This document shows positions 3,199-63,321 of a DNA stretch of 64,000 nt, in pieces. The translations under genes and the position numbers were made by a program. Source of the DNA: a virus (Duplodnaviria > Caudoviricetes); IMG/VR virus record IMGVR_UViG_3300035502_000313, positions 96,001 to 160,000 of that record. One strand, given 5' to 3'. Positions within the stretch are counted from its first letter, which is position 1, and every line of letters starts with the position of its first letter. A model generated the notes under the pieces. That model saw nothing but the letters and a program-made list of their open reading frames with translations. It had not been told where the DNA came from and made no database searches.

Positions 3199-3213
3199 TA
3201 CACATACCTCCTT

Positions 3214-3795: not shown

Positions 3796-3872
3796 TGAAC
3801 TTCCTCCTGTTATTTATATTATGAGTAAGTTGGAGTTGATGTAATTACCAACTCCTAACCTACATAACACGA

Positions 3873-7556: not shown

Positions 7557-7684
7557 AATTATATTCTCCTCTCAATAGTTATTCATTAAGTAGTAAAATA
7601 AGAAGTTGTATCTTATCATTACATAAATAATATATGTTTCAACTTATTATTAAATAATTGTACAGTAAGGAGTGATTCTTAACA

Positions 7685-9963: not shown

Positions 9964-10033
9964 AAAAAATAATCCTCCTTTTATAAATGCATTTATTATA
10001 AAGTTGTGGGGTGATGATGCTCACCCCACTCTT

Positions 10034-12139: not shown

Positions 12140-12208
12140 AACATCATCCTCCTTTATTATAAAAAAGTTATCGACCCAGTAGGAAACAAATCCTACTGGG
12201 TCTTTATA

Positions 12209-14220: not shown

Positions 14221-14301
14221 ATTTCATTTATCCTCCTTTCATTAGTGTATTTAATATTATGTTTTTGTAAAACTAAATTATTTTAGATATATATAATATA
14301 A

Positions 14302-14755: not shown

Positions 14756-14870
14756 AAGAAGGCGTGCATAAAGCACGCTTTCTTTTTAATAGATTAAATT
14801 ATTTTTTCATTATATATCATTGTAGTGATAGGATGAATACTATCAAATAAATTAATTTTGGAGGTTTACT

Positions 14871-15209
14871 ATGAACACGAAAAGGGAATTTGACGAGAAG
14901 AAGAATCTGAAAATAGCGTTAGGCAAGAGTTATCGTCTTCATAATTTTGACGATATCGTAAATTACCTTATCGCCATGGAATCTCAAAGGTTCCTCAGAG
15001 AAGTAATGTTCTCTAAAGACCATAACAACAAGTTCTCAGATCCATTACTGAGAAATGTTGTAAACGCTGATGATTTCTATTATAGTGCTATAATAAAAAT
15101 CACAGAAGGTCACAGCACACAGTTTCGGTATAACTTTATGAATAAGATATTCGATGAGAGTATCCCACTTACCCTTAGAGCGGAGATGCTTGATTTTGTA
15201 AAGTTATAA
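14871..15209 (+). CDS. Small early hypothetical protein
   Basis: GGAGG RBS, early promoter 14813, terminator 15236-15270. Confidence 0.7.
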   Translation: MNTKREFDEKKNLKIALGKSYRLHNFDDIVNYLIAMESQRFLREVMFSKDHNNKFSDPLLRNVVNADDFYYSAIIKITEGHSTQFRYNFMNKIFDESIPLTLRAEMLDFVKL

Positions 15210-15235
15210 GAAGCTGTACTTACACAAAGGGAAAC

Positions 15236-15270
15236 AAAGAAACGTGCTAATTAAAGCACGTTTCTTTTTT
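15236..15270. terminator. Bidirectional terminator; 26 bp identical to 33663-33688
   Basis: AAAGAAACGTGC-TAATTAAA-GCACGTTTCTTT. Confidence 0.85.
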
Positions 15271-15273
15271 ATA

Positions 15274-19155: not shown

Positions 19156-19288
19156 TTTAATTTACCTCCTGGCTTTAAGCCATATTTATTTTATTAAATT
19201 GTTATAGCTATACTAATTTGTAACTATCCTATTGCCTTCAATTACGTCAACTTATTAATAAAAGTCCTTAAGAAAGGAGAGAAATAAA

Positions 19289-25144: not shown

Positions 25145-25955
25145 CTTCTAATTCATTCTCCTTTTCTTCATCATATTCTTCTGATGATGCAACTTCTGGA
25201 GTAGAATTCTCAGAATCTGATATAATAAGATTTTGAATAGCTACTCGTATTTCAGTAAGAATAGATGGAATATTTATAACTTTACAAATCTCATCTTTAA
25301 ACAGATTACCCATAGGAGCAATATTAGAATAAATAAAATCACATGTCTCTCTAGGATAATTGAATGTCAAGAATGTATAGAAGTCAATATCAAAACCAGA
25401 GATATAATAAATTACTTCTCTGATTCTAGCAATAATGACATCTACATTTTTAGAATTGTCAAACACTTTTCTTATATAATTAGTAGTACTATCTTTACTC
25501 TTCTTATACTTGTCAAGACCCATGTTATTATATATCTCGTTCTTATACATATAGATATAACGAGCAAAGAAATTAATTATGTTTCTGGAAAAACCAGAAA
25601 CAAAGATGTCATACATATTATATGCTAAGACATAACAGTCTGGGTTATCACCAATATACTGAAGATTAAATGAGTTACATATTTTATTAATTATAGTAAG
25701 ATAAGTCTCTTGTCTAATAGACATTATGTTTTCTCCATCATTTGGAAAATTATTTAACATACCCTTGAAGTTAAGTTCATATGAGTTAATAATATTTGGA
25801 TTTGAAATGGTCGAGTTAAATGCAAAACGATTTCTTATATTAGAATCAATAACGTCCATAACGTATTGGGTATTAAACTTAGATAAGATTTCAGCAATCT
25901 CACCTTCTGCCACCATATTATATACGTTACTATTTCTATACAAATCAATAGGCAT
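25137..25955 (-). CDS. Hypothetical late protein
   Basis: AGGAGG RBS; late promoter 25988-25999. Confidence 0.7.
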   Translation of the reverse strand: MPIDLYRNSNVYNMVAEGEIAEILSKFNTQYVMDVIDSNIRNRFAFNSTISNPNIINSYELNFKGMLNNFPNDGENIMSIRQETYLTIINKICNSFNLQYIGDNPDCYVLAYNMYDIFVSGFSRNIINFFARYIYMYKNEIYNNMGLDKYKKSKDSTTNYIRKVFDNSKNVDVIIARIREVIYYISGFDIDFYTFLTFNYPRETCDFIYSNIAPMGNLFKDEICKVINIPSILTEIRVAIQNLIISDSENSTPEVASSEEYDEEKENELEDE

Positions 25956-26058
25956 AAAACGTACCTCCTTTTCTTATGCTTATATTTTAATAAATTGTTG
26001 TAGGTATTGTTGAAACGAAAAAATAAAGGGCACGATAAAGTGCCCAGTATTCTCTTGA

Positions 26059-31238: not shown

Positions 31239-32299
31239 ACCTGTGCACCTGCTCTAGAATGTAATGTATTTAGGTTATGTACAAAACCTTCCATAGCTTG
31301 ATAACAAGCTTTTTCTGTATCTTTATATGACATCTCTAGAATCTTTGTAATATAGTAATTATATACTGAAGAAGATATATTGAATTCACTATATAACTTA
31401 TCATCAAGACCATCATTAGCTTCACAAATTTCAAGATAGTGTTCAAGTTCTTCTAATTCCATATTGTTTATACTATCAAAGAACTCAGTTAATTCATCAC
31501 TATCATTAATAAACATCTTAAACTTTTCATAATTAGCATTGATTGACTTTCTGAATGTTTTATATATTCCAGGAGCCATCGAATAATCAAAATTAGGAAT
31601 CGATTGTCCACCATGCTGATCATTTTGATTGCTTTGAATTGCAATTGCTGCATGTGTAGCATACGATCCAATGCTATTAGGTTCTCTTAGGTAACCATGT
31701 CCTGTATTAAAACCATCCTTAAATAACTTAAGACAGTCAATCTGGCAACATGTTAGAGTAAGTGAATAAAAGTCAAGGTCGTGGATATGGATATAACCAT
31801 CTGTATATGCCTTGGCAATATCTTTACTCATCATATTATTTACATAATAATTCTTAGATACATTTGCACCTACTTGTAACATTGTACCCATAGGAGCATC
31901 GCCATCGATGTTACCATTATCACGCTTAAGGTCATTATCTTTAGATTCTGTATTAAGTAAAGAGGAGATTGTATTTGAAATACTATCTCTAGTATTTCTG
32001 ATTTCTGTTCTCTTCTGACGATAAAGAATATATTCCTTTGCAGTGTCGGCAAAACCATTCTTAATAAGAACACGTTCTACATTATCCTGAATCTTTTCTA
32101 CATCGATTTCGTTTGTATCGTTATCTGAACAATATTTATCACAAGCAGATTCAATATTGTCTGTTAGCTTTGTACAGGTACTTTTATCGAAATCATAATT
32201 GTCCATATAATGAGATGCTTCTACAGCCTTATATATGGCATTATAAATTCTTGTTTTATCAAAATCAACTTTGTTACCGTTACGCTTAATTACTATCAT
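31239..32299 (-). CDS. nrdD: NrdD exon 1 (ATP cone and N-terminus); spliced product 775 aa
   Basis: MIVIKRNG ATP cone, IHIHDLDFY, CCQID, QHGGQS, NLNTLHSRAGAQ; start 32299 behind GGAGG. Confidence 0.95.
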
Positions 32300-32429
32300 A
32301 ATTAAGTCCTCCTTTATAATTATTTTTACTATAAAGTTATATATTGTGTAGATAAAAAATAAACGAAAAAATAGCACCAGCGTACATATAGCGTACGCTG
32401 GCGAATATTTTTGTTTTACCTTATCGACG

Positions 32430-32717
32430 TCAATTTAAATATCTCTTAGCGAATTCATCTTCACCAATATTTTTACGAATTGATGATGTATTGATATACA
32501 CTGCACACAGACAACAATCGAACGGATCTGGTGCAATCAATGTGACTTTACAATCATAAAAGTCATTTACAAAACGAGTGAGATTAATATCACATCCGTC
32601 GATTTCATTTGCGACATCATCATAGAGTTCGAATCCATTAGGCATTGTTTCGAATACTCCGGCATTCTTATAATCTTCAAGAGTTATAAGCTTCTTTGCA
32701 TCGTTTGTTTCATTCAT
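32430..32717 (-). CDS. Small early hypothetical protein
   Basis: Early promoter 32771-32778; GGAG RBS. Confidence 0.65.
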   Translation of the reverse strand: MNETNDAKKLITLEDYKNAGVFETMPNGFELYDDVANEIDGCDINLTRFVNDFYDCKVTLIAPDPFDCCLCAVYINTSSIRKNIGEDEFAKRYLN

Positions 32718-32830
32718 TTTAAATTCTCCAGTCTATGTTTTATTGACTTTATCATCTGTCTATTACTAAAATAATATATAAATAAAAATAAATATTACCA
32801 GGAGTATGGTAGCTCCTGGTAATATAATAA

Positions 32831-33610
32831 TTAAACACAAAACATAATTGGTTGATTAGCATTTGCAGGATTAACATATCCTTCTCTAAGAGTATTAATA
32901 AAGTCTTCTCTTCTTCCAGCCCAGTTTTCAATATAACTTAACTTCAGATCAACTCCAGCGAATATAGTCTCAAGGCCATCATAATGCTGAAGATATGCTA
33001 CTAAAAAGTTAGCTACATCTGCAGTGGCAAGATTTTCAAAAATCTCCATTTGAGTAGGACTTATAGTAGATAGATTAGCAGGATGTGTTACAAATATATC
33101 TAATGGTATATGTCCAAGACCACCAGAAATATCACCATGTGTAGCACTCTGTAATCTAACCATATTAGGATATTTAAAGTCTACGAATATACTATTATTA
33201 AATACAGAAGTTAAATCTGCTCTCATTTGCAATAAAGCTACATCATCCATAGAATAGTTATTATATGCTGACAAATAGTCATAATATCCTATACCAGATT
33301 GCTGAGCCATACCACCATCTTCTTGACCGTATACATCCCAAGCAATATCTCTAACACCTAAGATTTCAGCACCTCCTAAGAGATCAGTATCAATTATATA
33401 ATAACCATCTCTTTTTCTACCTTTATCATTAGTGTCAATAGAAATTCTAACCATATGAGGAAAATAACGAGAGAATGTAAGTAATGTATCTGGAATAATG
33501 ACTTCTTCTACCCAAGTATCTTTAGAAATATCATCAGGTAACATAAGTGGCTTAGTACCTAATCTACGTTCAATCTTATTCAATAAGATATTCATTTTAT
33601 TAAAAGCCAT
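32831..33610 (-). CDS. Putative neck protein (T4 gp13-like)
   Basis: N-terminal KIERRLGTKP...TLLTFSRY resembles gp13; late promoter 33638-33649. Confidence 0.45.
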   Translation of the reverse strand: MAFNKMNILLNKIERRLGTKPLMLPDDISKDTWVEEVIIPDTLLTFSRYFPHMVRISIDTNDKGRKRDGYYIIDTDLLGGAEILGVRDIAWDVYGQEDGGMAQQSGIGYYDYLSAYNNYSMDDVALLQMRADLTSVFNNSIFVDFKYPNMVRLQSATHGDISGGLGHIPLDIFVTHPANLSTISPTQMEIFENLATADVANFLVAYLQHYDGLETIFAGVDLKLSYIENWAGRREDFINTLREGYVNPANANQPIMFCV

Positions 33611-33711
33611 AACTATTACATCTCCTTTATATAATATTACTTAGATGTTAAAAATACGCAAAAAAGAAACGTGCTAATTAAAGCACGTCTCCCTTTCTTT
33701 TGTTTCTTTGT

Positions 33712-33895: not shown

Positions 33896-34552
33896 TTACT
33901 TTTTTGTTGTCAGAGCATATTTATTAATTGCTCTGTTGTTTTCGTCTGTGACCATTCTGATAATAGACTGGTCTCTAAGTAGCACATTGAGTGTTACCTC
34001 AATTGCTATCTTAGATAACTGGCGATTAGTGAACCAATACTGTTCCCATTGGTCACCAAAGTATCGATCCAAGATCCTTTTGATCTTGGTATCAATTGAA
34101 TCACATGATCGAATGTGGTCAACTTCAGACTTCATAAGTCTGAGCTTAGCGTTTTGATCATTCTGAAACGCCATACTTCTACCAGCGAGAAAATAGTCAA
34201 TCTCTTGCTGGTCTACTACTGGTTTTGATCGTCTATACTCATATGAGCATAACCTTTTAATGATGCAAGACGATCCTTCCTCTGTAGTGATATGTACGTA
34301 CATATCCACAGAGGAGAGATTTCCTACTTCACATAAAGTTATCCTTTCTTGATAATCAACCTCCTTAAATCTGTGAATCGCATAAATAATGGCTTCTGTA
34401 CTGTTTTCAAACAGATACATCAAACCATCATTGAAAGAGCACATTACCCTTTCGAATTTCCCGAACTGGCTTTCTATTTCTCTTATAGCCTCGGAACGTC
34501 CTATTACATCCTCTAAGTCAAAATTTAAGTTACCCTGATTATTGTTGTTCAT
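33896..34552 (-). CDS. Early hypothetical protein
   Basis: Early promoter 34623-34630 and a structured leader. Confidence 0.7.
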   Translation of the reverse strand: MNNNNQGNLNFDLEDVIGRSEAIREIESQFGKFERVMCSFNDGLMYLFENSTEAIIYAIHRFKEVDYQERITLCEVGNLSSVDMYVHITTEEGSSCIIKRLCSYEYRRSKPVVDQQEIDYFLAGRSMAFQNDQNAKLRLMKSEVDHIRSCDSIDTKIKRILDRYFGDQWEQYWFTNRQLSKIAIEVTLNVLLRDQSIIRMVTDENNRAINKYALTTKK

Positions 34553-34635
34553 TTTGTTACCTCCTGCCTTTTATTGGCAATAAAATTTTAATTAACAGTT
34601 GAACGCTCTGTTAATCACTATTATAATATATAATC
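34553..34635 (-). promoter_or_regulatory. Early promoter plus two-hairpin leader, homologous to 48810-48887
   Basis: TATATTAT..AGTGATTAACAG-loop-CTGTTAAT..TGCC-loop-GGCAGGAGG. Confidence 0.75.
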
Positions 34636-35001: not shown

Positions 35002-35198
35002 TACGGTATTAATCCTCCTTCTTCTAATGCGTCTTCCATTGCATCAGCCTGAACCTGTTCCTTACCTTCTTCAGATTGCATCTTTTCATATGCTATTGTG
35101 TACAAGATTTGAAACATAGCACAAGGCATTTCATATAACTCCATAAGAGATATTCTACCTTTATAATAGGTTGAAACTTGCTCTATACGTCTTATATC
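35001..35198 (-). CDS. Putative -1 frameshift extension (65 aa, gp51/GT-like) of 35192-36895
   Basis: Open -1 frame from slippery G-AAA-AAG: DIRRIEQVSTYYKGRISLMELYEMPCAMFQILY...; no RBS of its own. Confidence 0.65.
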   Translation of the reverse strand, partial: DIRRIEQVSTYYKGRISLMELYEMPCAMFQILYTIAYEKMQSEEGKEQVQADAMEDALEEGGLIP

Positions 35199-36895
35199 TT
35201 TTTCATAAGACCCAGCTGATGACGTGTAAAAAGCATATTGTCAGGATTAATTTCTTGCTCGTCAATTTTTCTACCACATTTTGGACATCTGCGTTCAGGG
35301 TAGATATAAGAAATATCTCTGATAAGATTACCATTATCATCAAGCTTACCACCATCATACTTATCTGTTTCAACAGAAAGAGCCATAAGCTGGTCAGATG
35401 TCAGTGACTTAAGAATGGTATCAAATGTCTTAATACGACGCTTATATGTCAAAGACTTATCATTAACAACAGGCTTTGTATCAATAGGAATAAGCTGATT
35501 ATTAGCATAGTCAATCTTATAGATTGCATCGATGTAAGATAGTAGAAGAAGTCTATCTTCATACTTAGAGTTAAAATCCTGATTTACAAGAGTAGGTTCA
35601 ATATAAGTGTTATAAAGTGATGGAACCTTAAGAGCAAATACATACTCATCAGAAGCCTGATATAGAGTTACATTATAATCAGAGTTAGAAGAATCTGTAT
35701 TGCCTTCATGAAGAATAGTCATATATTCTTCCTTAATAGCATCAGATTCAAACTTAATCATAGAATGAATTGGAACTGATTCCATGAATACATTATTACA
35801 CTTATCATCACCACAAGAGAATGTGATAATATTAGACAAACCAAATGTAGCCTTATATGCAGTAAACATATAATCATCTACAACAGTATTAGGTGTAATC
35901 ATTGCCCAAGCTTCGAATGTCTTTGGCTTATTAGCATCAATAATATGATCATAAATAAGCTTTAGTTTGTTTTCGATATACTTGTTATAATTACTACCTC
36001 TTAAACGCTGTGGGTCGATAGACTGAATTTCCATTGGCTTCCATGCAGACATTCTAACAGCTTTCTTCTGATTCCATAGAACGCCATCTGCACATTCAAT
36101 AGCCTTAGTCTTGATATCATTGATAACCTTAGCAGCATTGATTGGCTTCTTAGCAATTGTAAAACCATTAAGATTAATAGCCTTAGAAATAGGATTGAAA
36201 GATTTCTTTACTTCCTTTCTAATTGTCTCTTTAATCTCTTCAGTCTTAGCCTTCTCATCTTCTTCCTCTTCAGAATCCTTATCATCTTCATCGTCATCTT
36301 CATCAAGATATTTCATGTCTTCATCTTCAATACCATCAAAAAGATGCTCATCTTCGTCATATACAGATTCATCAGCAGCCATAACGATAGTTTCTTTCTT
36401 AGTACCAGCAACAGGAGCTGAATTTTCAACAGTCTTTTCAATTACAACTGGAGTCTCTTCTTTTACAACAACAGGTGCTACAGGTGTAGGTTCTGGAGTA
36501 GGGGTTGTTGTTACTACAGACTGAGCAGGTTCAACCTCATCTTCAAACTTGTGTACTACAACAGTATTAGATGAAGATGCAGTTAGTTCGTCATCAGAAT
36601 CAATATCACTATCATTTACGATAGCAGCCTCGATTCTTTCTTCCTGACCTTTTCTAAAAGTTTCATTTGTTTCACTCTGTGTTCTGGCAATTGCACCATC
36701 AATTCCTTCAAATGCCTTATCAAGCATTGGATTACCTGTACCGACAATAGGCTCAGGCTTAGACTGTACTACAGCCTCAGCGATATTTGCTTCTTTTACA
36801 TTAGATGTATCTAGCTTCTTTCTTGGCATATTAGATGGAGTAGCAGTTGGAATAGCACCATTAGCAAGCTCAGATAAAGTTACATTTTCAGACAT
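35192..36895 (-). CDS. Baseplate hub assembly / tail assembly chaperone (T4 gp26-like) with long acidic N-terminus
   Basis: CGDDKC and CPKCG Zn motifs, ALKVPSL, near-terminal LF; follows the gp25-like gene. Confidence 0.6.
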   Translation of the reverse strand: MSENVTLSELANGAIPTATPSNMPRKKLDTSNVKEANIAEAVVQSKPEPIVGTGNPMLDKAFEGIDGAIARTQSETNETFRKGQEERIEAAIVNDSDIDSDDELTASSSNTVVVHKFEDEVEPAQSVVTTTPTPEPTPVAPVVVKEETPVVIEKTVENSAPVAGTKKETIVMAADESVYDEDEHLFDGIEDEDMKYLDEDDDEDDKDSEEEEDEKAKTEEIKETIRKEVKKSFNPISKAINLNGFTIAKKPINAAKVINDIKTKAIECADGVLWNQKKAVRMSAWKPMEIQSIDPQRLRGSNYNKYIENKLKLIYDHIIDANKPKTFEAWAMITPNTVVDDYMFTAYKATFGLSNIITFSCGDDKCNNVFMESVPIHSMIKFESDAIKEEYMTILHEGNTDSSNSDYNVTLYQASDEYVFALKVPSLYNTYIEPTLVNQDFNSKYEDRLLLLSYIDAIYKIDYANNQLIPIDTKPVVNDKSLTYKRRIKTFDTILKSLTSDQLMALSVETDKYDGGKLDDNGNLIRDISYIYPERRCPKCGRKIDEQEINPDNMLFTRHQLGLMKKI

Positions 36896-36910: not shown

Positions 36911-37330
36911 TTATTTAAAATCAGCTAAACTAGCTGTATTTTGTAATACTTCACCAGTTTCTGTATTAATCGGTAGATAAGCATTTAACTCTTCCGAAGT
37001 AATATAGATCTTGATTACTTTTTGATCATTAGTATCATCATCCCCAAGAATACATCTAACATCGGTTAGAGTAAACTGTGGAAGATATGTCATAATTTGG
37101 TTTTTTATAGAATTGGCTAATTTAACCATATCTACTTCAGTTGAATATCTAAATCTAGAAACTAGTCCAACACCCATACCAGGATGAGTCTGAAATGTTC
37201 CAGGTTCTAACAAGATAAGTCTAATCAGCATCAAAGTAGCATAGTCTTCACCTTTTGCTACAAGAGGCTTATAATATTTATCAACGGAAAGTAATGGTTC
37301 AGTTGTATCTACAGAAGTACTATCTGCCAT
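36911..37330 (-). CDS. Baseplate wedge protein (gp25-like)
   Basis: LILLEPGTFQTHPGMGVGL...IKNQIMTYLP. Confidence 0.7.
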   Translation of the reverse strand: MADSTSVDTTEPLLSVDKYYKPLVAKGEDYATLMLIRLILLEPGTFQTHPGMGVGLVSRFRYSTEVDMVKLANSIKNQIMTYLPQFTLTDVRCILGDDDTNDQKVIKIYITSEELNAYLPINTETGEVLQNTASLADFK

Positions 37331-37411
37331 ATTATTACCTCCTTCATTAATATATTGTTTTTGTTATAAAAAAATAAAGCTCTGATTTAACAGAGCCTTA
37401 TTTTTATTTGA

Positions 37412-38311
37412 TTAGTTTTCAGATGTGATTCTAGTTACAACTTCAATAGCCTTTTCTTTTGATTCAGCAGAACCAAGGAAACAGCTAGGGTGAAGGAAAG
37501 TAACTCCATCCCAAGTTCTTACCTCATCAGGAATATTGATAATATGGTTATTCATAGAACCTTCTTCTTTAGGAATAGCTCTAAAGCAATAACCTCCTCT
37601 AGAATTCGGATAGATATAGAACGGGATATTTTCTTTAGTGAGTTCATTAACCATAGAACTGATGTATGTCTCTGTTGCTACATAAACACCATTACTAGTT
37701 TTGATAGCTTTTAAACAGTCTTCATGTTCTTCTACTTCTGCATCGATAGTATAGAACAGATTTCTGAATAAAGTTTTCATAATGGTTACAGCATGTATGA
37801 ATTCATGTTCATTAGTATTAGAAAATCCGTTTGTTCTATTAGGTGGGCAATTTAACTGTCTAATCATAAATGTAAGAGGGTTAGATTCTACACCATTATC
37901 AGCATCATCAATATACTTGATTAATGATTCATATACATAAGTCTTGTGCTTTTCATCAGATACAAACTCTGTGCCAACCTCTCTCCAAATTAATCCAACT
38001 GATGCATATTTTCCACCATCAGGTCTAAACACATGATTAGCTTCTTCACCAACTTGATGATGGTCATACTGTCCTAATCCAATGTCATATACTACACAGT
38101 CTACTGTGTCATCTGTGTATCCTTCTTCAGCAGGCTTAAATGTTTTAACAAGTTCAGTTTTGATTCCATATTTATCTACAAACAACAATTCAAGAAGTGC
38201 TGTTGCTGATACGTCATCTGTATGGAATCTAGGGTTTGAGCTATGTGTTACAAGTGTAACCTCAGTACATTCTCCTTTCTTGATTCTTTCAATGATTTCT
38301 TTAATTTTCAT
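37412..38311 (-). CDS. MYG1/UPF0160-family DHH exonuclease
   Basis: TH...FHTDD, YDIG..YDHHQ, YASVGLIW, IDDADNG, FLHPSCF. Confidence 0.88.
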   Translation of the reverse strand: MKIKEIIERIKKGECTEVTLVTHSSNPRFHTDDVSATALLELLFVDKYGIKTELVKTFKPAEEGYTDDTVDCVVYDIGLGQYDHHQVGEEANHVFRPDGGKYASVGLIWREVGTEFVSDEKHKTYVYESLIKYIDDADNGVESNPLTFMIRQLNCPPNRTNGFSNTNEHEFIHAVTIMKTLFRNLFYTIDAEVEEHEDCLKAIKTSNGVYVATETYISSMVNELTKENIPFYIYPNSRGGYCFRAIPKEEGSMNNHIINIPDEVRTWDGVTFLHPSCFLGSAESKEKAIEVVTRITSEN

Positions 38312-38439
38312 ATAATTAATTCCTCCTTAAGAATTATGATGTATTATATCATACATCAAAATGATATATGATTATATTTTAGTTTTTACAAGTATAAAAA
38401 CTTAACTATAAATAACTCTCACTGAAAGGAACATATATT

Positions 38440-39222
38440 ATGGCTAAATTGAAATACACCTTTGATGACTATATTAATAATCCATCTGGAAAAGGCAGTG
38501 CAGTTATTGCTTCCATTAATAAAGACCAATTTGATAAGGAGCTTATTGGTCTGGAAAGTAATAATGGAAAATCCAGTTATACTGTTTATAAGCAAATTAA
38601 AAGTGGCGGCATAGTATCTTATGTCATACACTTTCTAATTCCTTCTAATACTAAAAATTTCTTTCATGATGTAGTTGTAGAATTTACACCAAAAAAGGAT
38701 GATTCTACTACTAATAGAACGATAAAGAATCATACAGTAAGATTCTTTTCTAATGACAGCAATTTTGTATTTACATATGCTTATACTTTTAAATCACATG
38801 GAGTTCTAATAACAGAACTCGAAAAACTTCTTCCGTTTAGAAGTACTGTACAAAAACCTACTATGCGTAATCCTGACAATGCAATGGGTTATAATAAGAG
38901 TATAGTGTTTGCTTATCTTATTATGCAAAGAAATGGATTATTTGCTAAGGATACACTTAATAGACTTGCTAAGAATGCTGGTATTAATGTAATACGAGCA
39001 AATATTTTACCTTTTGATAAAAAGGAGCAGGAACGTAAGAAAATAACACAAGAAGCTAAAGAGGCTGGAGAAAAAGAAAAAAGAACCCCAGCTAATAAAG
39101 TAATCAAATCTAAGAATCTTCTTGGGGATAAGTTACCATCACCGCCAAAGATTTCTAAGATTGTCGGTAATAGTAAGATGATTAAGAAAGTTTCAAGTGT
39201 CAAAAAATCTAAAAAGCGATAA
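38440..39222 (+). CDS. Hypothetical late protein with basic C-terminus
   Basis: 260 aa ORF; late promoter 38399-38410. Confidence 0.7.
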   Translation: MAKLKYTFDDYINNPSGKGSAVIASINKDQFDKELIGLESNNGKSSYTVYKQIKSGGIVSYVIHFLIPSNTKNFFHDVVVEFTPKKDDSTTNRTIKNHTVRFFSNDSNFVFTYAYTFKSHGVLITELEKLLPFRSTVQKPTMRNPDNAMGYNKSIVFAYLIMQRNGLFAKDTLNRLAKNAGINVIRANILPFDKKEQERKKITQEAKEAGEKEKRTPANKVIKSKNLLGDKLPSPPKISKIVGNSKMIKKVSSVKKSKKR

Positions 39223-39284
39223 GGTTGTATATTATAATGGAGTACAAAGTACAAATTTATTTATAAAACGGGAGGTTAAATAAA

Positions 39285-40913
39285 ATGGATAACAATTTTG
39301 AATCACCAGAAATACTAAATTCACTTCAGCCGATGGATGTATTTGAGTATTCTCATAGTGCATATTATTGGACTGAAGTAGACAATTGGTTTCCACAACA
39401 AGGGGAAGAAATTTTTAAGCAAACCAGAAACGCAATTATTCTTCCAGTGTCCAAGTTTTATGAAAGACCTGAGTCTTCTATGATGCTGGACTATTTTATG
39501 CTTATCTCAAAGAGATGCTACAATTCTGATGAGATCAGAAATCATATTTGTAGATATCTCAATTATTTTGAAAGATTCTATGATAAAGAACAAGAGTTAT
39601 TGTTCCATATGTATAGAATCAAGTTCATGATTGATATTGGAGTACCTACCAGTGACGGTAAGTATAGACAATATACTATGGATGAATTCAAGAATGACAT
39701 AAAAACTTATGTCCTTTCTCAGAGCATCTATAGCAAGACATGGAAAATGGTTGAGGACAATTATCAGCTTGAACTCAACTACAAAAACAAAAGCAATGAA
39801 GCTTTGCAGTACTCAGACCGTCATGGTAAATATCTGATGGAAATTAGTATCTTTATGAATATGCTTATTCCTTTGATGATGCATTTTGTATATAAGAACA
39901 AAATCACATCTACAGATGTAATTCATACACTGATTTTCACAATTTACAACTGGCTGTTTGATATTTACACCAACAAAGATATTATGGCTAAGCGTGGTCT
40001 TCAGCCTGCAGATATGTATTCTAAATTCTATGAGACATCTAGTACAACTATGGCATCTCATTATAAAACAAATGGAACACTTTGGGACATGTCTGCAATT
40101 AGAGGTCACTCACCTATAATCAATGCAAATGATGCAGTTAACACTGTTATTATGCAGGTTATGCCAAAATATACTTTTAAAGGAAACGTTATTACATACA
40201 ATATAACTTCCGTCAGAAATAATATAAAGTATAATATTTCTGATATTAGTTATGAGTATGATTACGTTTCGTTAAGCTCTTCAAAACGTGATGGAGAAGA
40301 TAATACTTCACAGTTGGATAAGTATGAAGCCCATCTTCAGAAAACTGATGAAGGACTAGCACTTCAGAACGATTACAGAGCTAAGAGAGTTATGGAAATA
40401 ATTATTTCATTCGGAGGGTATGTCAGTGATGATGAAATCAAATTTTATAGAAAACGACTTACCGAGAATGGGCAGTTTCTTATAAATCGTTTCCAACAGA
40501 ATCTTGTCAATAATATGTATTATAGATTCTTTGGAGACACAGTATCAATCAATAGTATCAATGGTGATCAGTATATCACTCTTATGATAATTGCTAAAAG
40601 ATTGTTACTGAAAAATGGTATGAAGCTATTACCGTATATAATCTCAAGTAAAGTAGTTAGAATATCTACAAGAACTTCTCTTTGTAAGAAAGAACTTATG
40701 AAGATAGAACAGTCTGAATATTATAATGACTTGCTTAGAAAGTATAATGGTAATGAAAAGATTATCAAGCAGTTTTTATCATTAATAGCAACAACCTTAT
40801 CTAGTGGTTTTAAGATTATTGATTATGATAATTCTCAGTATAATAACTATGAGGTTGTTATGGAAAGCGATATTCTCATCGATGAACTGATGAGATTTAT
40901 TCTTGCAATATAA
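39285..40913 (+). CDS. Sigma-like promoter-specificity subunit of the non-virion RNAP (AR9 gp226-like)
   Basis: Colinear similarity to the recalled gp226 sequence: YTMDEFKNDI, VEDNYQLELN..LQYSD..MNMLIPL, MPKY..VITY, terminal LIDELMRFILAI; early promoter 39228. Confidence 0.72.
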   Translation: MDNNFESPEILNSLQPMDVFEYSHSAYYWTEVDNWFPQQGEEIFKQTRNAIILPVSKFYERPESSMMLDYFMLISKRCYNSDEIRNHICRYLNYFERFYDKEQELLFHMYRIKFMIDIGVPTSDGKYRQYTMDEFKNDIKTYVLSQSIYSKTWKMVEDNYQLELNYKNKSNEALQYSDRHGKYLMEISIFMNMLIPLMMHFVYKNKITSTDVIHTLIFTIYNWLFDIYTNKDIMAKRGLQPADMYSKFYETSSTTMASHYKTNGTLWDMSAIRGHSPIINANDAVNTVIMQVMPKYTFKGNVITYNITSVRNNIKYNISDISYEYDYVSLSSSKRDGEDNTSQLDKYEAHLQKTDEGLALQNDYRAKRVMEIIISFGGYVSDDEIKFYRKRLTENGQFLINRFQQNLVNNMYYRFFGDTVSINSINGDQYITLMIIAKRLLLKNGMKLLPYIISSKVVRISTRTSLCKKELMKIEQSEYYNDLLRKYNGNEKIIKQFLSLIATTLSSGFKIIDYDNSQYNNYEVVMESDILIDELMRFILAI

Positions 40914-40983: not shown

Positions 40984-41988
40984 ATGTTTACTGAAAGAAA
41001 GAAAATAGTTATTGGAGAAACATACTTGTTCGATGTTCTTAATGAAACTAATATGGCTGTAACTTCATCATTAGTAACAGTTATAAAGAAATCAAAACAT
41101 AACAAGTATATTGTCTTGTCTGTTAATAATGGAGATATTTTTGAGACAGACGCTGAATACTTAACTCCATATGTAGATCCTGAAAAAGCTTCTGTTATAC
41201 GTTGTCAGTACGGAACAACAGAATTCACTAATCACGATCTTATTTATTTTGAGACTGTGGATATGATGTTAGACATGCTTAATACTTTAAACCAAGAAGT
41301 AAAGGATGATTTTAAAGCAAGTGAAGAGTTTTCTGATATTATAAAGATGTCAAAAGAACTCACTGCTGATATGAGAGAAAAGGTTACTAAGTATGTAAAC
41401 ATCAGCAATTATAAATCAGCATTCAAAGTATTAGGAAATGCTTATTCTAAGATAAAGAATAACTTTAAATGCAATGAAGAAAAGGCTGTTGATTTATTGT
41501 CTTATATAAATAAAGACTATTCTAAGTTTGACGATATGTTTAACAGTAATGTAGATGATTATATCAGTGGAGATATAAACATTGAAGACTTTATTGATAA
41601 GGCTGAAGATATAATCGAAGAAGCATATCCTAAGGAACTTCTTGAAAATGTTAAAGATATCATAGATCCACGACGTTCAAAAATAAGCAAAGAAGAGATT
41701 AGAGAAACTTTATGTAAGGTAGTTAGACATGCTTATGTAAATGATTGTATAGCTATCATTATAGGATTAGATGATTCAGAAAATTGGCATATCAAATCTG
41801 TATATTTCGATGATGAAGACTATGGTAAAGCTGATGCAATAAATGAAGTTATGGATGATTTTAAAGAATATGTTTATGATATGTATCCTGAATTAGAACA
41901 GCATGATTACTGTGATCCTAAATACAGATTCAATGTTATCACTATAAGCAAAAAAGATAATATTGAAAATGACGATGATATGGAGTGA
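40984..41988 (+). CDS. Hypothetical protein
   Basis: 334 aa ORF; AGGAGG RBS. Confidence 0.7.
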   Translation: MFTERKKIVIGETYLFDVLNETNMAVTSSLVTVIKKSKHNKYIVLSVNNGDIFETDAEYLTPYVDPEKASVIRCQYGTTEFTNHDLIYFETVDMMLDMLNTLNQEVKDDFKASEEFSDIIKMSKELTADMREKVTKYVNISNYKSAFKVLGNAYSKIKNNFKCNEEKAVDLLSYINKDYSKFDDMFNSNVDDYISGDINIEDFIDKAEDIIEEAYPKELLENVKDIIDPRRSKISKEEIRETLCKVVRHAYVNDCIAIIIGLDDSENWHIKSVYFDDEDYGKADAINEVMDDFKEYVYDMYPELEQHDYCDPKYRFNVITISKKDNIENDDDME

Positions 41989-41994: not shown

Positions 41995-42276
41995 ATGAAT
42001 AACACAGAAGTATATCTTCAGGATAAATTTATAAGAACAAGACTTGCGAACATACGCAAGTCTAAGGGTCTTACACAAAAAGAATTATCAGATATATCTG
42101 GTCTTTCTATTGCTACAATAAGCAATATAGAATTTGGGGAGAATTCATATACACTTAGAAGTTTAATTAAGTGTGCAGAAGCTCTCGGATATGAAATTAA
42201 TATAGATAAAAAGGTCGGTGATATAAATGTCAATACCGAAGAAACAGATAAAGGAATTCCTTCTTCAAGCACTTGA
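41995..42276 (+). CDS. XRE-family HTH protein
   Basis: LANIRKSKGLTQKELSDISGLSIATISNIEFG...L. Confidence 0.9.
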   Translation: MNNTEVYLQDKFIRTRLANIRKSKGLTQKELSDISGLSIATISNIEFGENSYTLRSLIKCAEALGYEINIDKKVGDINVNTEETDKGIPSSST

Positions 42277-43282
42277 TGGAATGAAACCAGTGTCCGGAGG
42301 AACAGAACTTGCTGGTCCTTGTCCTATATGTGGAGAAAGAAGAGCAAAGTTTTATATAGGTCCATTTGATGATTCAGATAGACCTATTAGATATAATTGT
42401 TTTGTATGTCCTGCTCAAGGATATGTAGACCAATATTTTCTTGATACTTGTAAGATATCAGCTAATCTAGACCCAGCTATTCTAAAAACTAATAAAGGTC
42501 CAGGTTATATGACTCAAGGACTGTCAAATGATATAAAGTATAATCTTAATTATCATATTGTAACAGAAAGTCCATTAACAGAGATGAAGTTACAATATAT
42601 CAATCAACGTTTAGGAACACAGTTAACTTACCAAGACTGTGCTGATAATAAGATTATTTTAAACATCTCGGACTTACTTGAAACTAATGGTATTTCATAT
42701 TATTCTAGACCACAAGAAGCAATGAAACAATTAGACACTTACTTTATAGGATTTCTATCACGTAGTTGTTCAGCTTTAAATATGAGAAATCTTGTATTTG
42801 GTAAGAAAGATGTATTAAATACTTTTCACGAATCTATGAGATCAAAGTATGTAAACTATAAGATATTTAAGAACGTTGTAGAAGATGATTTTTATGTATT
42901 ACCTTGTAGTGTTGATTTAAGTAAAAAAGTGAGAGTGTTTATAGCAGAAGGTCCTATGGATATTCTAGGAATAAAGTACAATCTAATCAAGAGTACAGAT
43001 AATTGTGTATATATTGCTGGTAGAGGTAAAGCATACGAAAATGCAATGTTATGGATAATAACAACTCTAGCTACTATAGATTTGGAGATTCATACATTCC
43101 CAGATAAGGATGTATCTAACTCGTATATAAGAAATATAATACTAGGTTTTAAATCAACATTTCCTATGTATAGATTCTTTATACACAATAATCAATATGC
43201 TAATGAAAAAGATTACGGTGTTCCAGAATGGCGTATCTCAGATTTCTACTGGGAAGAAAAAAATAATAGCAATTTGATATAA
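42227..43282 (+). CDS. DNA primase (Zn finger plus TOPRIM)
   Basis: CPICG...CFVC; FIAEGPMDILG; FPDKD; KDYG. Confidence 0.85.
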   Translation: MSIPKKQIKEFLLQALDGMKPVSGGTELAGPCPICGERRAKFYIGPFDDSDRPIRYNCFVCPAQGYVDQYFLDTCKISANLDPAILKTNKGPGYMTQGLSNDIKYNLNYHIVTESPLTEMKLQYINQRLGTQLTYQDCADNKIILNISDLLETNGISYYSRPQEAMKQLDTYFIGFLSRSCSALNMRNLVFGKKDVLNTFHESMRSKYVNYKIFKNVVEDDFYVLPCSVDLSKKVRVFIAEGPMDILGIKYNLIKSTDNCVYIAGRGKAYENAMLWIITTLATIDLEIHTFPDKDVSNSYIRNIILGFKSTFPMYRFFIHNNQYANEKDYGVPEWRISDFYWEEKNNSNLI

Positions 43283-43559: not shown

Positions 43560-43676
43560 ATGCACCTCAGATAGGACGTGGTCTTTATAGCAGTTTCTGC
43601 ATCCTATCACTATTATAATATATAATTATCATAGTTCAACATTTCAATAAAGTATTACAAAAAGGAGGGTTAAATA

Positions 43677-44873
43677 ATGGGTGGTAAATTTATTAATAAG
43701 TCATATTCTGGTACTATTAATGCTCTTACATCTGGTACAATTCAGAAAGTAAAAACAGCCAATTATGTGTTTAATAATAAATCTCCTGTTTTATGTAACT
43801 GGTATAATATTGATAAAGATGCTACCACAATTGATGAGGGTAGTGGACTTCATTACTCCGATGTAGGTAAAACAAGTCCAATTAGATATAAAGTGATTAA
43901 GGATGCTGTTTTCTATGCTCAAGGTATTCAGATTGAAATCAACCTTGAATATGATGAAGAAGGTTTATCAACAGCACCTCCTTCAATTAGCGGTATTATA
44001 TTACCTAATACTTGGATTCCTTATCAGGGAGATCATTTCTTCTTAAAACAATCTGGTAAGGAATATCTATATAGAGTAAATACTGTAGATTATGACACTA
44101 TAGAGAATGGTAATAACTTATATAAGTTTGATGCAGCTATTGATCAGACTGGTGAAACTTATATAGATAAACAAGTTACTGATAGTTATAGAATGATTAT
44201 CAATAATGTAGGAACTAGCTTTAATTCTATTGTAAAAGAATCTATATACGATTGTATTGATATACTTGATGGAATTCTTATACAATTAAAGAATAACTTT
44301 ATATCACTATTCTATAATGATGCTGTACAGACATTTACTTATAATGGTACTTATGGAAAACTTTATGATCCTTACATGATAGAGTTTATTTCTAGAAATG
44401 ATATTCTTAAAGGGTCAGATGAGTATATCTTTGTACATCATGAAGTTCCAGTTCCTAGAACATTCTCAATTGATTATAATAATACTATATATAGAGCATT
44501 AGAAACAAAGACATTAGATCATTTCTCTGTTAATGCTTGTATAGCAAATCCAATTGATAATCAATACTCTCTATTCTCTACAGTAATAGATCAATATTTC
44601 AGTATTGATTATAATAGTAATAATGGTATATATAGATTCAATCCTATAAGTGGCGAACTTATTGGAAGAACAAAAATGAATAATGAGTTTGATGCTTATT
44701 CAGAAGATGCTTATATGAATATCATTATTAAATATATGAATGACTCTAACATAGATTCTAATATCATTCCTTTACTAGAAGATATGGAATTTAAACCTAC
44801 TGTAGACATGTTTTATTGTATTCCTATGATAATATATGTTCTAGAAGCTAGTGTAAAAAAGTTGATGAGTTAA
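43677..44873 (+). CDS. Virion protein, possibly neck (T4 gp14-like N-terminal domain)
   Basis: PYQGDHFF...YLYRVNTVD...LYK; late promoter 43638. Confidence 0.45.
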   Translation: MGGKFINKSYSGTINALTSGTIQKVKTANYVFNNKSPVLCNWYNIDKDATTIDEGSGLHYSDVGKTSPIRYKVIKDAVFYAQGIQIEINLEYDEEGLSTAPPSISGIILPNTWIPYQGDHFFLKQSGKEYLYRVNTVDYDTIENGNNLYKFDAAIDQTGETYIDKQVTDSYRMIINNVGTSFNSIVKESIYDCIDILDGILIQLKNNFISLFYNDAVQTFTYNGTYGKLYDPYMIEFISRNDILKGSDEYIFVHHEVPVPRTFSIDYNNTIYRALETKTLDHFSVNACIANPIDNQYSLFSTVIDQYFSIDYNSNNGIYRFNPISGELIGRTKMNNEFDAYSEDAYMNIIIKYMNDSNIDSNIIPLLEDMEFKPTVDMFYCIPMIIYVLEASVKKLMS

Positions 44874-46635: not shown

Positions 46636-48435
46636 CTAGAACTCTGGATTTACAAATTTAATAGAATCATCAGGTTGAATAGTTAATTCATATAGACATA
46701 GTATATTTTCTTTTGTTACTGTTCTACTAGAGTATCCATTCATACCCAATACTTGAATCTTTGCATCTGCTTGTTTTTCACATTCTTTATTAGCTTCTAT
46801 CGTATACACTGGTTTAACTATAGCAGTATCGCCATCATAGTCCATTCCCATAGCATCAATAAGTCCATTACAAATAGAAAGGGTATCTTCAAATACAGGA
46901 GATGTATTAGAGTTTATGTCTTCATTATTTATAACAGGATACCATTTATAAAATTTATTATTATCTTCAAAATAAGACTGAATTACCATAGGTTGGGTTT
47001 TTACAGTAGATTTTATTCTTACTTTAGATGGATACTGGTTTAAATAAGAGTCAATAGGAAAACGTGTAATAAGAACCATCTTGTCTTCTGTAACATCACA
47101 AGCTGCCATATAGAATAAATCACACCAAGTTAACACTCTCGTTATTTTATGTTCCTGGGAAAATTCTTTCTTTGTTTCATCAAACTCTTTAGAATTGTTT
47201 AATTTATAACCAGAAAAAAACATACCAAAATTTAATTTCTTTAAATCTACAGGCTTTCCAGTCGATGTCTTTAATTCTTTATTTTTAACTTGTCTAGCAA
47301 ATTCTTCTTTATCTACAGGAAGATCAATAGGAATAAATCTATTAGAATAACCGTGTATAAAACGTTCAATTTGTTTATCAAGTTCTACGTCAGAGAAAGC
47401 AATCTGATAATCTACAAGAGGAACCATTACTGTTTCTTTATCATTGATTTTTATAGGATATTCTAATCTACCGGCAAATCTATTTTCAAAGAAACGTCTT
47501 AACCAAAACATTATAAATGGTTTAAAACAACATAATGCAGCAGCTAATGGTAATGCAGCGTGATTCATATCAATCATTAAGTCATCAATATTCTCACCAG
47601 ATACATCTGGAGCAGACATTACAAGACGTGCAGAATAGTCTATAGTTTTATACATAAGACCGCGTTTAATAAGCCCCATTTTACCAGGCAAGTTTGCTGG
47701 AGTTTCTTGACCATTGATAGTGGTTCCATTACCAAACCAGTCAAATATCTGTACAAGAATATTCTGTACTCTAGCTTTTGTAACATCAGATAATGTAAGA
47801 CCAAATCCAGCAGTTTCTTTAAGTGATTTTGTAGCCATTAATAAACTACTATAAAGTTTATTAATCTCACCAACACCGATACCAGCATCTCTAGTATCAA
47901 CGTCTCTATAATATGCTGGGATAACTATATACTTAGTAATCCACATTTCATTTCTATACTTTTCAATAAATTCAACTCTTTTATTTCTAGAAGATGAGTC
48001 GTTCTTCTTAAACTTGATTTTATTGAAATTCTTTTTGAGCCAGTCTATTCCAGTATTACCATCATCAGAAACAATTAATTCACCGTTATCATTAATAATA
48101 AAGTATTCAGTACCATTTACAATACTTTCAATCTTCTTATTTAATTTACATAATGTCTTATACACAAGAGGATGAATAAAAGTTCCTCCTAAATCTATAT
48201 AAGCATAAATACCAGAACGTTCAGCTTTAGTAATACCAAAGATTTCATTTGATAATAATCCATCTTCTGTAGGAGTAGGACCATTGAAGAAAACAGGATT
48301 AGATACTTCTTTAAGCATATTTACTCTAATAAACTTATCTATATCTAATAGAGAAGTCTTTAAATGTTGAGTAGCTGCTTCAGAGAAAAAGTCAGTATCA
48401 TTCTTAGCTATGTTAACAGCCTCATTAATAAGCAT
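46636..48435 (-). CDS. RNA polymerase beta' N-terminal (catalytic) subunit, probably of the virion RNAP
   Basis: DGLLSNEIFG, YIDLG..FIHP, GKMG..KTIDYSARLV, TRFP, catalytic GMDYDGD; late promoter 48465-48476. Confidence 0.9.
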   Translation of the reverse strand: MLINEAVNIAKNDTDFFSEAATQHLKTSLLDIDKFIRVNMLKEVSNPVFFNGPTPTEDGLLSNEIFGITKAERSGIYAYIDLGGTFIHPLVYKTLCKLNKKIESIVNGTEYFIINDNGELIVSDDGNTGIDWLKKNFNKIKFKKNDSSSRNKRVEFIEKYRNEMWITKYIVIPAYYRDVDTRDAGIGVGEINKLYSSLLMATKSLKETAGFGLTLSDVTKARVQNILVQIFDWFGNGTTINGQETPANLPGKMGLIKRGLMYKTIDYSARLVMSAPDVSGENIDDLMIDMNHAALPLAAALCCFKPFIMFWLRRFFENRFAGRLEYPIKINDKETVMVPLVDYQIAFSDVELDKQIERFIHGYSNRFIPIDLPVDKEEFARQVKNKELKTSTGKPVDLKKLNFGMFFSGYKLNNSKEFDETKKEFSQEHKITRVLTWCDLFYMAACDVTEDKMVLITRFPIDSYLNQYPSKVRIKSTVKTQPMVIQSYFEDNNKFYKWYPVINNEDINSNTSPVFEDTLSICNGLIDAMGMDYDGDTAIVKPVYTIEANKECEKQADAKIQVLGMNGYSSRTVTKENILCLYELTIQPDDSIKFVNPEF

Positions 48436-48533
48436 ATAATAAATACCTCCTTATTAAAATTTATTATTAAATTGTTGAAGATACAAAAAAGAACAGCCTA
48501 TCTCACGACAGTCTGTTCCTTTTCGATTATAGA

Positions 48534-48887: not shown

Positions 48888-48999
48888 CCATAAATATTTT
48901 AAAATTCAACATATCAATAAAGCTCATATAAGGAAAGTACTTACGATGAAATTTAATAAATGATTTATATTAAAATCTCAAAAGGAGGTAATCATATCT

Positions 49000-49554
49000 A
49001 TGAAAAAGCCTATTTTTTATTATACTGAAGGTCATCCTCATTGTGATGATTATCGTATAGGACCACCGCCATGTTCTTCAGCTAGTACATGTCATCCTTG
49101 TACTCCTCCTGCTAAACCACAGCCATATTATCATGGTAAAGTAAGTGTAACAGGACGTACAGTACTTACGGTTAAATATCTAGATAGACATAATTACTAT
49201 CAGACATTTGATATCAGAGACGGTGAGACATATGAAATTACAGCAGTATCCTCTACAAGAGGTATCTGTAAATTTGCTGGTAGAATTGTTGATTTTGAGT
49301 GTAATAAAGGTATTGAAAAGCTTTTAGATAAGCCACATGAAATTACAATTTCTGCTCTTATTGTAGATTATTCTGATGCTTATGAAAGTAAGTTAATTAG
49401 AATGTATACAAACAATATTGTATCGATCAAACCTATTAAATGCTTTGACGGTGAGATGAACTATCCTACTGAATGTGACTGCGATTATAGCAGTCCTGAT
49501 TATGGTCATGAATGTCATCATGATGAAGAACCTATTTATGACCCATTCGAATAA
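49000..49554 (+). CDS. Late protein with Pro/Cys/His-rich ends, paralog of 22765-23151
   Basis: YEITAV..GI.KFAGRIVDF...VDYSDAYESKL. Confidence 0.7.
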   Translation: MKKPIFYYTEGHPHCDDYRIGPPPCSSASTCHPCTPPAKPQPYYHGKVSVTGRTVLTVKYLDRHNYYQTFDIRDGETYEITAVSSTRGICKFAGRIVDFECNKGIEKLLDKPHEITISALIVDYSDAYESKLIRMYTNNIVSIKPIKCFDGEMNYPTECDCDYSSPDYGHECHHDEEPIYDPFE

Positions 49555-55440: not shown

Positions 55441-55539
55441 TCTAAAGGGAGAAGTTATATAACTTCTCCCGATATTTTATACTTTTCATCCTATAAAATT
55501 ACATCTTGAACTATTTAGTAAATTATAAATGTTAAGGAG

Positions 55540-56271
55540 ATGATTGATGTGGATACACCTAGCTTTATTAAAGTAAAAGGTGATTCTTATGTATTTGCTA
55601 ATGAAGGAACATTCAAATTCTATGTTCCTGAAAAGTATTTTTCTAATAAGCTCGCACAATTCGTAGGAGAATATATCTCACTATTTGGAATGTTATCTTA
55701 TGCAATTTTTGATAAGAATGACAAAGCTATTGGAAAACTAAGAACATTTAAGTTTCCAATCTCATTTCTGACTAAACCAGATGAGATTGAAGTTGTAAAA
55801 GGAATTACTTTAACGAGTAATAACAACCCTAGTGATTATAGAATTCTTAAATATCATAAAGATGGAGTAATCGTAGTAAATTATAATATTGCCGAAGACG
55901 CTGAGAATATTCAGCGTTGGTATTCTGCACTTGATACTGGTGCTTTACCTAATAATTTACCATATGATGAACTTCAAGATTACTTTCTAAGAAATATTCA
56001 ATTGACTGGTAATAAATACTCTGTTTCATTACAATTGATAGGAGTAGTTATTGGTGAATTATGTCGTTCTAGAAAGGATATTGATACTGCGTTCCGTCTA
56101 ACTGACTCAAATGATATGAATAATTATCAGTGGATATCCATTAGAGATATCCCTAAAGGAGTATCTCCATTTACTGCATTACAGTCCGAAGAATGGGACA
56201 AAGCTGTCATTTCTTCTATTATTGCAGACACTAATCGTGATTCTCCTCTTGAGAAAATTATGATGGATTAA
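55540..56271 (+). CDS. Possible stand-alone RNAP beta' C-terminal (clamp) fragment
   Basis: LIGVVIGELCR resembles HIEVIVRQMLR; SPFTALQSEE..AV..SI..SPLEKI resembles region H. Confidence 0.4.
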   Translation: MIDVDTPSFIKVKGDSYVFANEGTFKFYVPEKYFSNKLAQFVGEYISLFGMLSYAIFDKNDKAIGKLRTFKFPISFLTKPDEIEVVKGITLTSNNNPSDYRILKYHKDGVIVVNYNIAEDAENIQRWYSALDTGALPNNLPYDELQDYFLRNIQLTGNKYSVSLQLIGVVIGELCRSRKDIDTAFRLTDSNDMNNYQWISIRDIPKGVSPFTALQSEEWDKAVISSIIADTNRDSPLEKIMMD

Positions 56272-56393
56272 TGCAGATAACTTTTTAACATATTGATAAA
56301 AGGTCATGTAACAACCAGTTTATATGCCTTATATAAAAACACACATAAGATTAAACACACATTTTTAAAAATTTAAAAAGGAGGATAAAACAC

Positions 56394-63208: not shown

Positions 63209-63321
63209 TTAAATATACCTCCTTCGATATTGATATTAATAGATTGTTGGATTGGTCGATAATGACGGGATTGTAAAAGCAATAAGAGAACCATGCTCTT
63301 TTACAAGCATGGTTCTTTTTG

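Follow-up and report, generated by a model that had tools for sequence, protein, structure and literature searches.

The window analyzed here is a 64,000-nucleotide stretch (positions 96001-160000) of the IMG/VR record IMGVR_UViG_3300035502_000313, a single contig of 212,182 bp with direct terminal repeats that is rated 100% complete. The record is the complete 212-kb genome of an uncultured AR9-like jumbo phage, with a GC content of 31% (A+T 69%). The gene under study encodes a 542-aa protein of the family of AR9 gp226, the sigma-like fifth subunit of the non-virion RNA polymerase (nvRNAP). The favored reading, to which we give a probability of about three in four, is that the protein is an AR9-type nvRNAP specificity subunit in a phage whose DNA probably contains thymine. 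A preliminary description, made from the DNA sequence alone, had placed a 542-aa open reading frame (ORF) at 39285-40913 of the window, and its (+) strand and open frame are confirmed. The locus contains the following features (window coordinates, used throughout unless genome positions are specified):

38373..38384 (-): late-type promoter motif of the divergent gene 37412-38311 (motif scan)
38399..38410 (+): late-type promoter, AACTTAACTATA(AAT), 29 nt before the ATG at 38440 (motif scan)
38440..39222 (+): conserved upstream neighbor, homolog of the AR9 gene directly 5' of gp226 (BLASTP E 3e-26, 34% identity; phrog_20045)
39228..39238 (+): promoter-like element of early type, TATATTATAAT, its start 57 nt 5' of the gp226-like start codon (core match to AR9)
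39285..40913 (+): gp226-family promoter-specificity gene (putative sigma-like fifth nvRNAP subunit), 542 aa (profile, fold, tblastn)
40077..40079 (+): codon of Thr265, equivalent to AR9 gp226 Val206 (alignments; hypervariable column)
40083..40085 (+): codon of Trp267, equivalent to AR9 Trp208, near-invariant anchor of the 2.1bis-helix motif (W in 91/93 family sequences)
42227..43282 (+): DNA primase, completing the gp226-x-primase order as in phiR1-37 (phrog_19847 E 2.8e-32; synteny)

Submitted as a single query, the 542-aa protein returned nothing useful from Pfam, PHROGs or PDB, and it took tblastn, with hits in BpSp and phiR1-37, and a family profile to reveal its homology. Against cultured phages, tblastn matched it to gp281 of Bacillus phage vB_BpuM-BpSp (E 7e-8; 24.6% identity, query coverage 85%), which is the ortholog of AR9 gp226 (PDB 7s01_A, E 4e-171), and to g245 of Yersinia phage phiR1-37 (E 1e-8). 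A search of 1.84 billion representative proteins yielded 439 homologous clusters at E <= 1e-3, and a profile built from 84 full-length members aligned with residues 10-462 of the 464 residues of AR9 gp226 (7s01_A, E 1.5e-64); pairwise BLASTP against the same protein gave E 8e-14. Structurally, the AlphaFold2 model (pLDDT 91) has 7s01_A as its top match (Foldseek E 1.4e-14), with a VIA-align Z score of 27.1 over 437 aligned residues. The two-domain fold matches, and the high global root-mean-square deviation (~15 Å) reflects domain orientation. The next structural match, phiKZ gp68, covers the C-terminal domain only (VIA-align Z about 12, 156-167 residues), and the protein clearly belongs on the AR9 side of the family rather than the phiKZ side. 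Membership of the gp226 family is thus firm: the preliminary description had called the ORF gp226-like and proposed a fold comparison, and both the sequence profile and the AlphaFold2/Foldseek result bear it out.

Two further observations concern the family at large. The metagenomic branch carries a well-conserved W-[DEN]-[KM]-Q-x-I-R-G motif at the Trp that does not occur in the five cultured phages with uracil in place of thymine in their DNA (dU phages), marking a distinct gp226 subfamily. In Listeria phage LPJP1, the gp226 homolog is recorded as two adjacent coding sequences (2707-3855 and 3934-4329; locus L004:2707-4329), so that either the gene is split or the record contains a frameshift.

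The preliminary description had gone further and predicted that dU replaces dT in this genome, with Thr265 excluding thymine as Val206 does in AR9, such that the nvRNAP would read only U-containing promoters. In AR9, the uracil at -10 is wedged between gp226 I207 and R363 of βN, from the split β subunit, its C5 lying 3.9 Å from the Cβ of V206, while Y210 stacks on -9G and βN K375 hydrogen-bonds the base; the V206G mutant enzyme accepts T, and Val at this position has been described as 'absolutely conserved' in dU phages (PMC9209446). The presence of a gp226 homolog and the isosteric relation of Thr to Val speak for the dU prediction, as does the fact that, within the phage collection, the cultured phages with a gp226 sequence homolog are all AR9-like. 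Documented dU DNA comprises that of AR9/PBS1, BpSp, S6 and phiR1-37 (PMC7598289).

The residues of the pocket itself argue the other way. The register given in the preliminary description is correct: W267-Y305 corresponds gap-free to AR9 W208-Y246 in three concordant alignments (BLASTP against AR9 gp226, MAFFT with the five known dU-phage homologs, and profile-to-PDB), giving the equivalences T265 = V206, L266 = I207 and M269 = Y210. The five cultured homologs read V-I-W-x-[Y/F], with Y-R in βN, whereas this protein reads T-L-W-D-M and its βN partner has Ser in the R363 column, with K375 kept. The change of I207 to Leu is conservative; the Val206, Tyr210 and βN Arg363 states of the AR9 pocket are absent. 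Moreover, the V206 column is among the least conserved of the alignment of 93 sequences (V18, T15, G13, K10, L6, I5, A4 and others). By rank, the nearest relatives have S, D, Q, K, A, I, T, V and P, the wider clade also G; in IMG/VR genomes that are 63-78% identical, the residue is K, I, I, T, I and I. Because Lys, Ile and Thr interchange among such sister phages, the column is not constrained as it is in dU phages. Many genomes that encode ThyX likewise have Val here, and Gly is found mainly in genomes that encode ThyA. The claim that the U-selective pocket is kept is therefore not supported at three positions: a hypervariable V206 column, Y210→M and βN R363→S. The βN Arg was also considered as a dU marker in its own right and rejected, as most family genomes retain it whatever their nucleotide genes, including most ThyX/ThyA genomes; S or N (mostly Asn) is specific to the subclade of this phage.

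The nucleotide metabolism genes likewise differ from those of dU phages. In genome coordinates, a ThyX gene lies at 14692-15852 (-) (locus L006:1447-2607) and a DCD-family dCTP deaminase gene at 9168-9731 (-) (locus L155:669-1232). The ThyX protein matches PF02511 with 122.8 bits and the NCBIfam equivalog TIGR02170 with 103.3 bits (cut-off 87.9), and in an alignment to T. maritima ThyX the motifs RHR…S-x-RY, ARxxLPxN and LRxDxHAQxEI are retained. The DCD protein scores 113.8 bits for TIGR02274 (equivalog cut-off 92.8). Among solved structures, its nearest are those of the M. tuberculosis (bifunctional; E 1.5e-21), B. halodurans and M. jannaschii enzymes, and E. coli Dcd, which is monofunctional, is far weaker (1.8e-7); the phage protein appears closest to the bifunctional, dUMP-forming enzymes. 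This likeness and the pairing with ThyX fit dTMP synthesis rather than dUTP accumulation.

The five known dU phages present the opposite picture: none has ThyX, ThyA or DCD (0/5 each), and all have a Zn-type Dcd (PF00383; 5/5), the zinc-type deaminase being the dCTP deaminase of PBS1 and phiR1-37 (PMC12697855). No Zn-type Dcd was found in the genome of the present phage. Of the gene content that the preliminary description had proposed as a check, a dCTP deaminase is present as a DCD-family protein, but the dU-phage type is missing and the gene accompanies ThyX; similarly, ThyA and both trimeric and dimeric dUTPases are absent from the genome as anticipated, but ThyX is present. An intact ThyX, found here and in 33/45 relatives, would produce dTMP that a dU phage must destroy, and a dU phage would be expected to encode an enzyme that degrades dTMP or dTTP (Dtm/Dtt; PMC12697855). 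Searches of the present genome revealed no HAM1 (Dtt) homolog, with a working phiR1-37 positive control, and no YfbR-HD protein; the PF06941 (PBS1-type Dtm) profile is uninformative here, as it also missed the AR9 record itself. Neither blastp nor phmmer found a homolog of AR9 Ugi in the genome, but such inhibitors are small proteins and are not known to be conserved from one dU phage to another. With its own thymidylate synthase and key pocket residues lost, the phage is unlikely to have a uracil-DNA genome, and the prediction of a dU-for-dT genome is not upheld by the combination of a phage ThyX, no Zn-type Dcd and no Ugi or HAM1 homolog.

A 285-aa P-loop protein adjoining ThyX was considered as a thymidylate kinase and rejected, as the similarity is limited to an 18-residue P-loop match (PHROG E 7.5e-4) with no Pfam, NCBIfam or PDB support; it is labeled only 'P-loop kinase-like' on this sequence match.

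The ThyX protein has an uncharacterized insertion of ~140 aa, placed between profile positions ~66 and ~40-185. A further reading of the base content is that the genome carries some other non-canonical pyrimidine, for example a 5-substituted dU made by an insertion-bearing ThyX-like enzyme, with the pocket residue tracking the modification. The ThyX homologs of the clade are in keeping with it: the 33/45 related jumbo genomes encode proteins of 386-580 aa with a like split match and an insertion of ~140 aa or longer, the RHR-to-Ser spacing here is one residue under that of T. maritima ThyX, and the pocket column is extremely variable. Yet the protein lies above the NCBIfam equivalog cut-off with all aligned substrate-binding motifs kept, and further modification genes were neither seen nor searched for. 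A hydroxymethylase derived from ThyX is not known. A modified pyrimidine of this kind is thus very unlikely.

Comparison of related genomes places the phage in a broader context. Among 45 related jumbo genomes, ThyX was found in 33 and ThyA in 8. DCD above cut-off was found in 14 of these relatives and in the phage under study, and all 15 are also ThyX-positive. Among the sampled genomes of >=90% completeness, a Zn-type Dcd in the absence of both synthases was seen in only two, G009 (L028) and G010 (L030); gp226 reads A-V-I-W in G009, with H-R in βN, and P-L-W in G010. G009 is a 201-kb genome, 100% complete, without ThyX, ThyA or DCD and with its Zn-type Dcd inside a 430-aa ORF (gp226 at L028, βN at L099/L122, whole record L132-L141). 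By sequence, it has every feature of the dU signature, making it a better uncultured dU candidate than the phage under study.

The promoters of the phage closely resemble those of AR9. The motif AAC[AT]-N6-TA occurs 116 times on both strands of the window, which alone is near chance, and 468 times genome-wide, being frequent by chance at 31% GC. However, it is concentrated on the sense strand, in 62 of 107 gene-upstream regions, compared with 19 antisense and 15.0±3.6 (maximum 25) in 500 shuffles, and its position peaks sharply 25-34 nt 5' of the start codon, with the extended consensus AACWttttwATAAw. Since de novo expectation-maximization on gene-upstream regions gave a strong Shine-Dalgarno motif, AAAGGAGG, and no promoter, strictness was scored by anchoring solely on the downstream TAA. 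At the TAA-anchored sites, AAC occupies -11..-9 in 40/165, while the runner-up triplet reaches 11 and one-mismatch variants 0-6; AACA and AACT are equally frequent. AAC(A)-N6-TA is the AR9 late-promoter consensus (PMC5449584, PMC9209446). The 20 such promoters reported in the preliminary description agree with the 20 gene-upstream instances counted in the window.

The same promoter is enriched in the relative G029 (ThyX, gp226 V-L-W), with 47 regions against 17.8±3.9, and more weakly (30 regions against 14.9±3.7) in G009, a genome devoid of thymidylate synthase genes. The strict AAC element could be taken to favor a dU genome; yet because the promoter is enriched with or without a synthase, and Val206 occurs in ThyX genomes, neither the AAC promoter nor the gp226 subunit is a mark of dU.

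Alternatively, the sites could be sigma-A-like -10 boxes of the host (TATAAT/TAATAA) in which the AAC is fortuitous, the gp226 homolog having a different specificity. The downstream half, wATAAw, does resemble a -10 hexamer, and the loss of the -9G-stacking Tyr and of βN Arg363 leaves a base-contact surface unlike that of AR9. A fortuitous AAC is nevertheless hard to reconcile with a dominant and strict triplet at fixed spacing (40 sites against <=11 for any other), with an exact match to the AR9 late consensus (PMC9209446, PMC5449584), or with its recurrence in two distant relatives that carry the gp226 family. In addition, no -35-like element is evident in the position counts 5' of AAC. Host-type boxes are therefore a most improbable explanation.

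The 62-nt leader of the gp226-like gene contains no late-type AAC element. Its early-type element instead has the core TATATTAT, shared with the seven promoters that carry the label 'early' in AR9 (ATATATTAT); AR9 gp226 itself lies behind one of them. The label 'early gene' in the preliminary description is made plausible by this core, as an inference from sequence, and the gene is probably transcribed early by the injected virion RNA polymerase.

The genes around the gp226-like gene provide further parallels with cultured phages, and synteny of the gp226 neighborhood was found with AR9, BpSp, phiR1-37, S6 and LPJP1. The primase gene lies two genes 3' of the gp226-like gene; the ORF at 40984-41988, which synteny would have predicted as the primase, was rejected as it has no similarity to the AR9 primase. 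In AR9, BpSp, S6, LPJP1 and phiR1-37, GroEL lies two genes upstream of gp226, whereas here the GroEL-like chaperonin is encoded on the opposite strand at a distance of 22 kb, at 15274-16986 (-) (phrog_5725 E 7e-64; Cpn60_TCP1 E 4e-16); the ORF at 35192-36895 was rejected as the GroEL of this neighborhood. The polymerase partners are represented by split β homologs, with βN at genome positions 31413-33134 (E 1e-36) and βC at 37122-39359 (E 2e-80), compared with AR9 gp105 and gp089.

The remaining late-type motifs of the window, all from the motif scan, are:

3820..3837 (-): two overlapping late-type motifs 5' of 3214-3795
7641..7652 (+): late-type motif 5' of 7685-8374
9994..10005 (-): late-type motif 5' of 8428-9963
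12158..12169 (-): late-type motif 5' of 11669-12139
14252..14263 (-): late-type motif 5' of 12751-14220
19192..19203 (-): late-type motif 5' of 18355-19155
19249..19260 (+): late-type motif 5' of the terminase large subunit gene 19289-21604
25988..25999 (-): late-type motif 5' of 25137-25955
33638..33649 (-): late-type motif 5' of 32831-33610
34589..34600 (-): late-type motif 5' of 33896-34552
37348..37359 (-): late-type motif 5' of 36911-37330
43638..43649 (+): late-type motif 5' of the virion structural gene 43677-44873
48465..48476 (-): late-type motif 5' of 46636-48435
48908..48919 (+): late-type motif 5' of 49000-49554
55509..55520 (+): late-type motif 5' of 55540-56271
56287..56298 (+): late-type motif 5' of 56394-59672
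63237..63248 (-): late-type motif 5' of the virion structural gene 60902-63208

Three of the genes in the window merit separate mention. The 599-aa ORF at 46636-48435 (-), which has its own AAC promoter at 48465-48476, shows a weak match to residues ~319-459 of bacterial RNA polymerase β' (E about 4e-3) and is probably the β'-N piece of one of two phage RNA polymerases. The gene at 37412-38311 (-), divergent from the gp226 gene cluster, encodes a protein of the MYG1/UPF0160 family (PF03690, E 1.6e-21), an unusual family for a phage. The 511-aa protein encoded at 8428-9963 (-), behind an AAC promoter, contains an RHS repeat match (PF05593, E 7e-7). As for the host, for which the preliminary description had proposed an anaerobic Firmicute, the AAAGGAGG ribosome-binding motif and the low GC content are the sole host-related traits seen, and a Firmicute-like host is compatible with them.

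Taken together, these data suggest the following model. The 542-aa protein would act as the fifth, sigma-like subunit of a non-virion multisubunit RNA polymerase with split β partners. As a homolog of AR9 gp226, it would use its N-terminal domain, together with βN, to bind the template strand at a -10-like element, directing initiation to 5'-AAC(A/T)-N6-TAA-3' promoters before about 60% of transcription units. The gp226-like gene itself would be expressed early by the injected virion polymerase from the AR9-type early core. The DCD-family deaminase and ThyX would form a dCTP→dUMP→dTMP route supplying the 69% A+T genome, and the DNA would most likely contain thymine, with the AR9 U-only -10 pocket residues lost (V206→T, Y210→M and βN R363→S).

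Several points weigh against this thymine-DNA reading. The call on base content draws on gene content and residues rather than on DNA chemistry. The promoter holds a strict AA at -11/-10, as in AR9, and Thr265 could in principle still exclude the methyl group, as Thr is isosteric with Val and the AR9 contact is made through the Cβ of V206. A dCTP deaminase-family gene in a genome with no dUTPase and no uracil-DNA glycosylase (UDG) is also compatible with dU, and sequence leaves unsettled whether the DCD protein is mono- or bifunctional. Finally, the ~140-aa insertion in ThyX and its RHR-X6-S spacing, one residue under that of T. maritima, leave room for an altered chemistry.

On balance, we lean toward the view that most of this very large uncultured family, the present phage included, consists of thymine-DNA relatives of AR9 whose nvRNAP would read a 3'-TTG-5' (not 3'-UUG-5') template through a rebuilt -10 pocket. 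Clustered at 50% identity, the family comprises no fewer than 439 groups, and 41/45 sampled jumbo genomes encode ThyX or ThyA. The template-strand, U-dependent promoter recognition of AR9 has so far been described for dU jumbo phages, where it is taken to let the phage disregard host DNA. If the thymine reading is true, these polymerases would be the natural counterpart of the engineered V206G enzyme, and dU (AR9, S6, phiR1-37 and the candidate G009) would be a minority state, gained or lost within one transcription system. Confirmation would uncouple the 'template-strand AAC promoter' from the 'uracil requirement', turn the pocket variants (V, T, I, K, G, D and others) into a natural series for U/T discrimination, and advise against assigning dU on the strength of a gp226 homolog or of AAC promoters only. 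A marker set suggested for dU would be the absence of ThyX/ThyA together with a Zn-type Dcd and V-I-W.

Among known systems, AR9/PBS1 gp226 (PDB 7S01, 7UM0, 7UM1; PMC9209446, PMC5449584) is the closest parallel. The two share both domains, the invariant Trp (W208/W267), the neighborhood, with the conserved upstream gene and the primase downstream, the late consensus, and the early core before the gene. In contrast, identity is only 21-23%, the protein here is 78 residues longer, and position -8 of the promoter is equally A or T rather than A. The phage also carries ThyX and DCD without a Zn-type Dcd or Ugi homolog, which makes U-dependence unlikely. Other dU phages encode homologs as well (BpSp gp281, Staphylococcus S6_1200, Listeria LPJP1 and Yersinia phiR1-37 g245) as members of a common family. 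Their order of GroEL, hypothetical gene, gp226 and primase is partly shared here, whereas in their V-I-W-x-[Y/F] motif, their βN Y-R and their lack of ThyX or DCD they are the opposite of this phage. phiKZ gp68, the fifth subunit of the phiKZ nvRNAP (PDB 7OGP, 8QUE), resembles the protein in the structure of its C-terminal domain, with no detectable sequence similarity. phiKZ is itself a thymine-DNA phage, and its late promoters are reported to follow a different consensus. Thus, if its DNA contains thymine, the system described here would represent a naturally occurring variant of the AR9 system, which depends on U.

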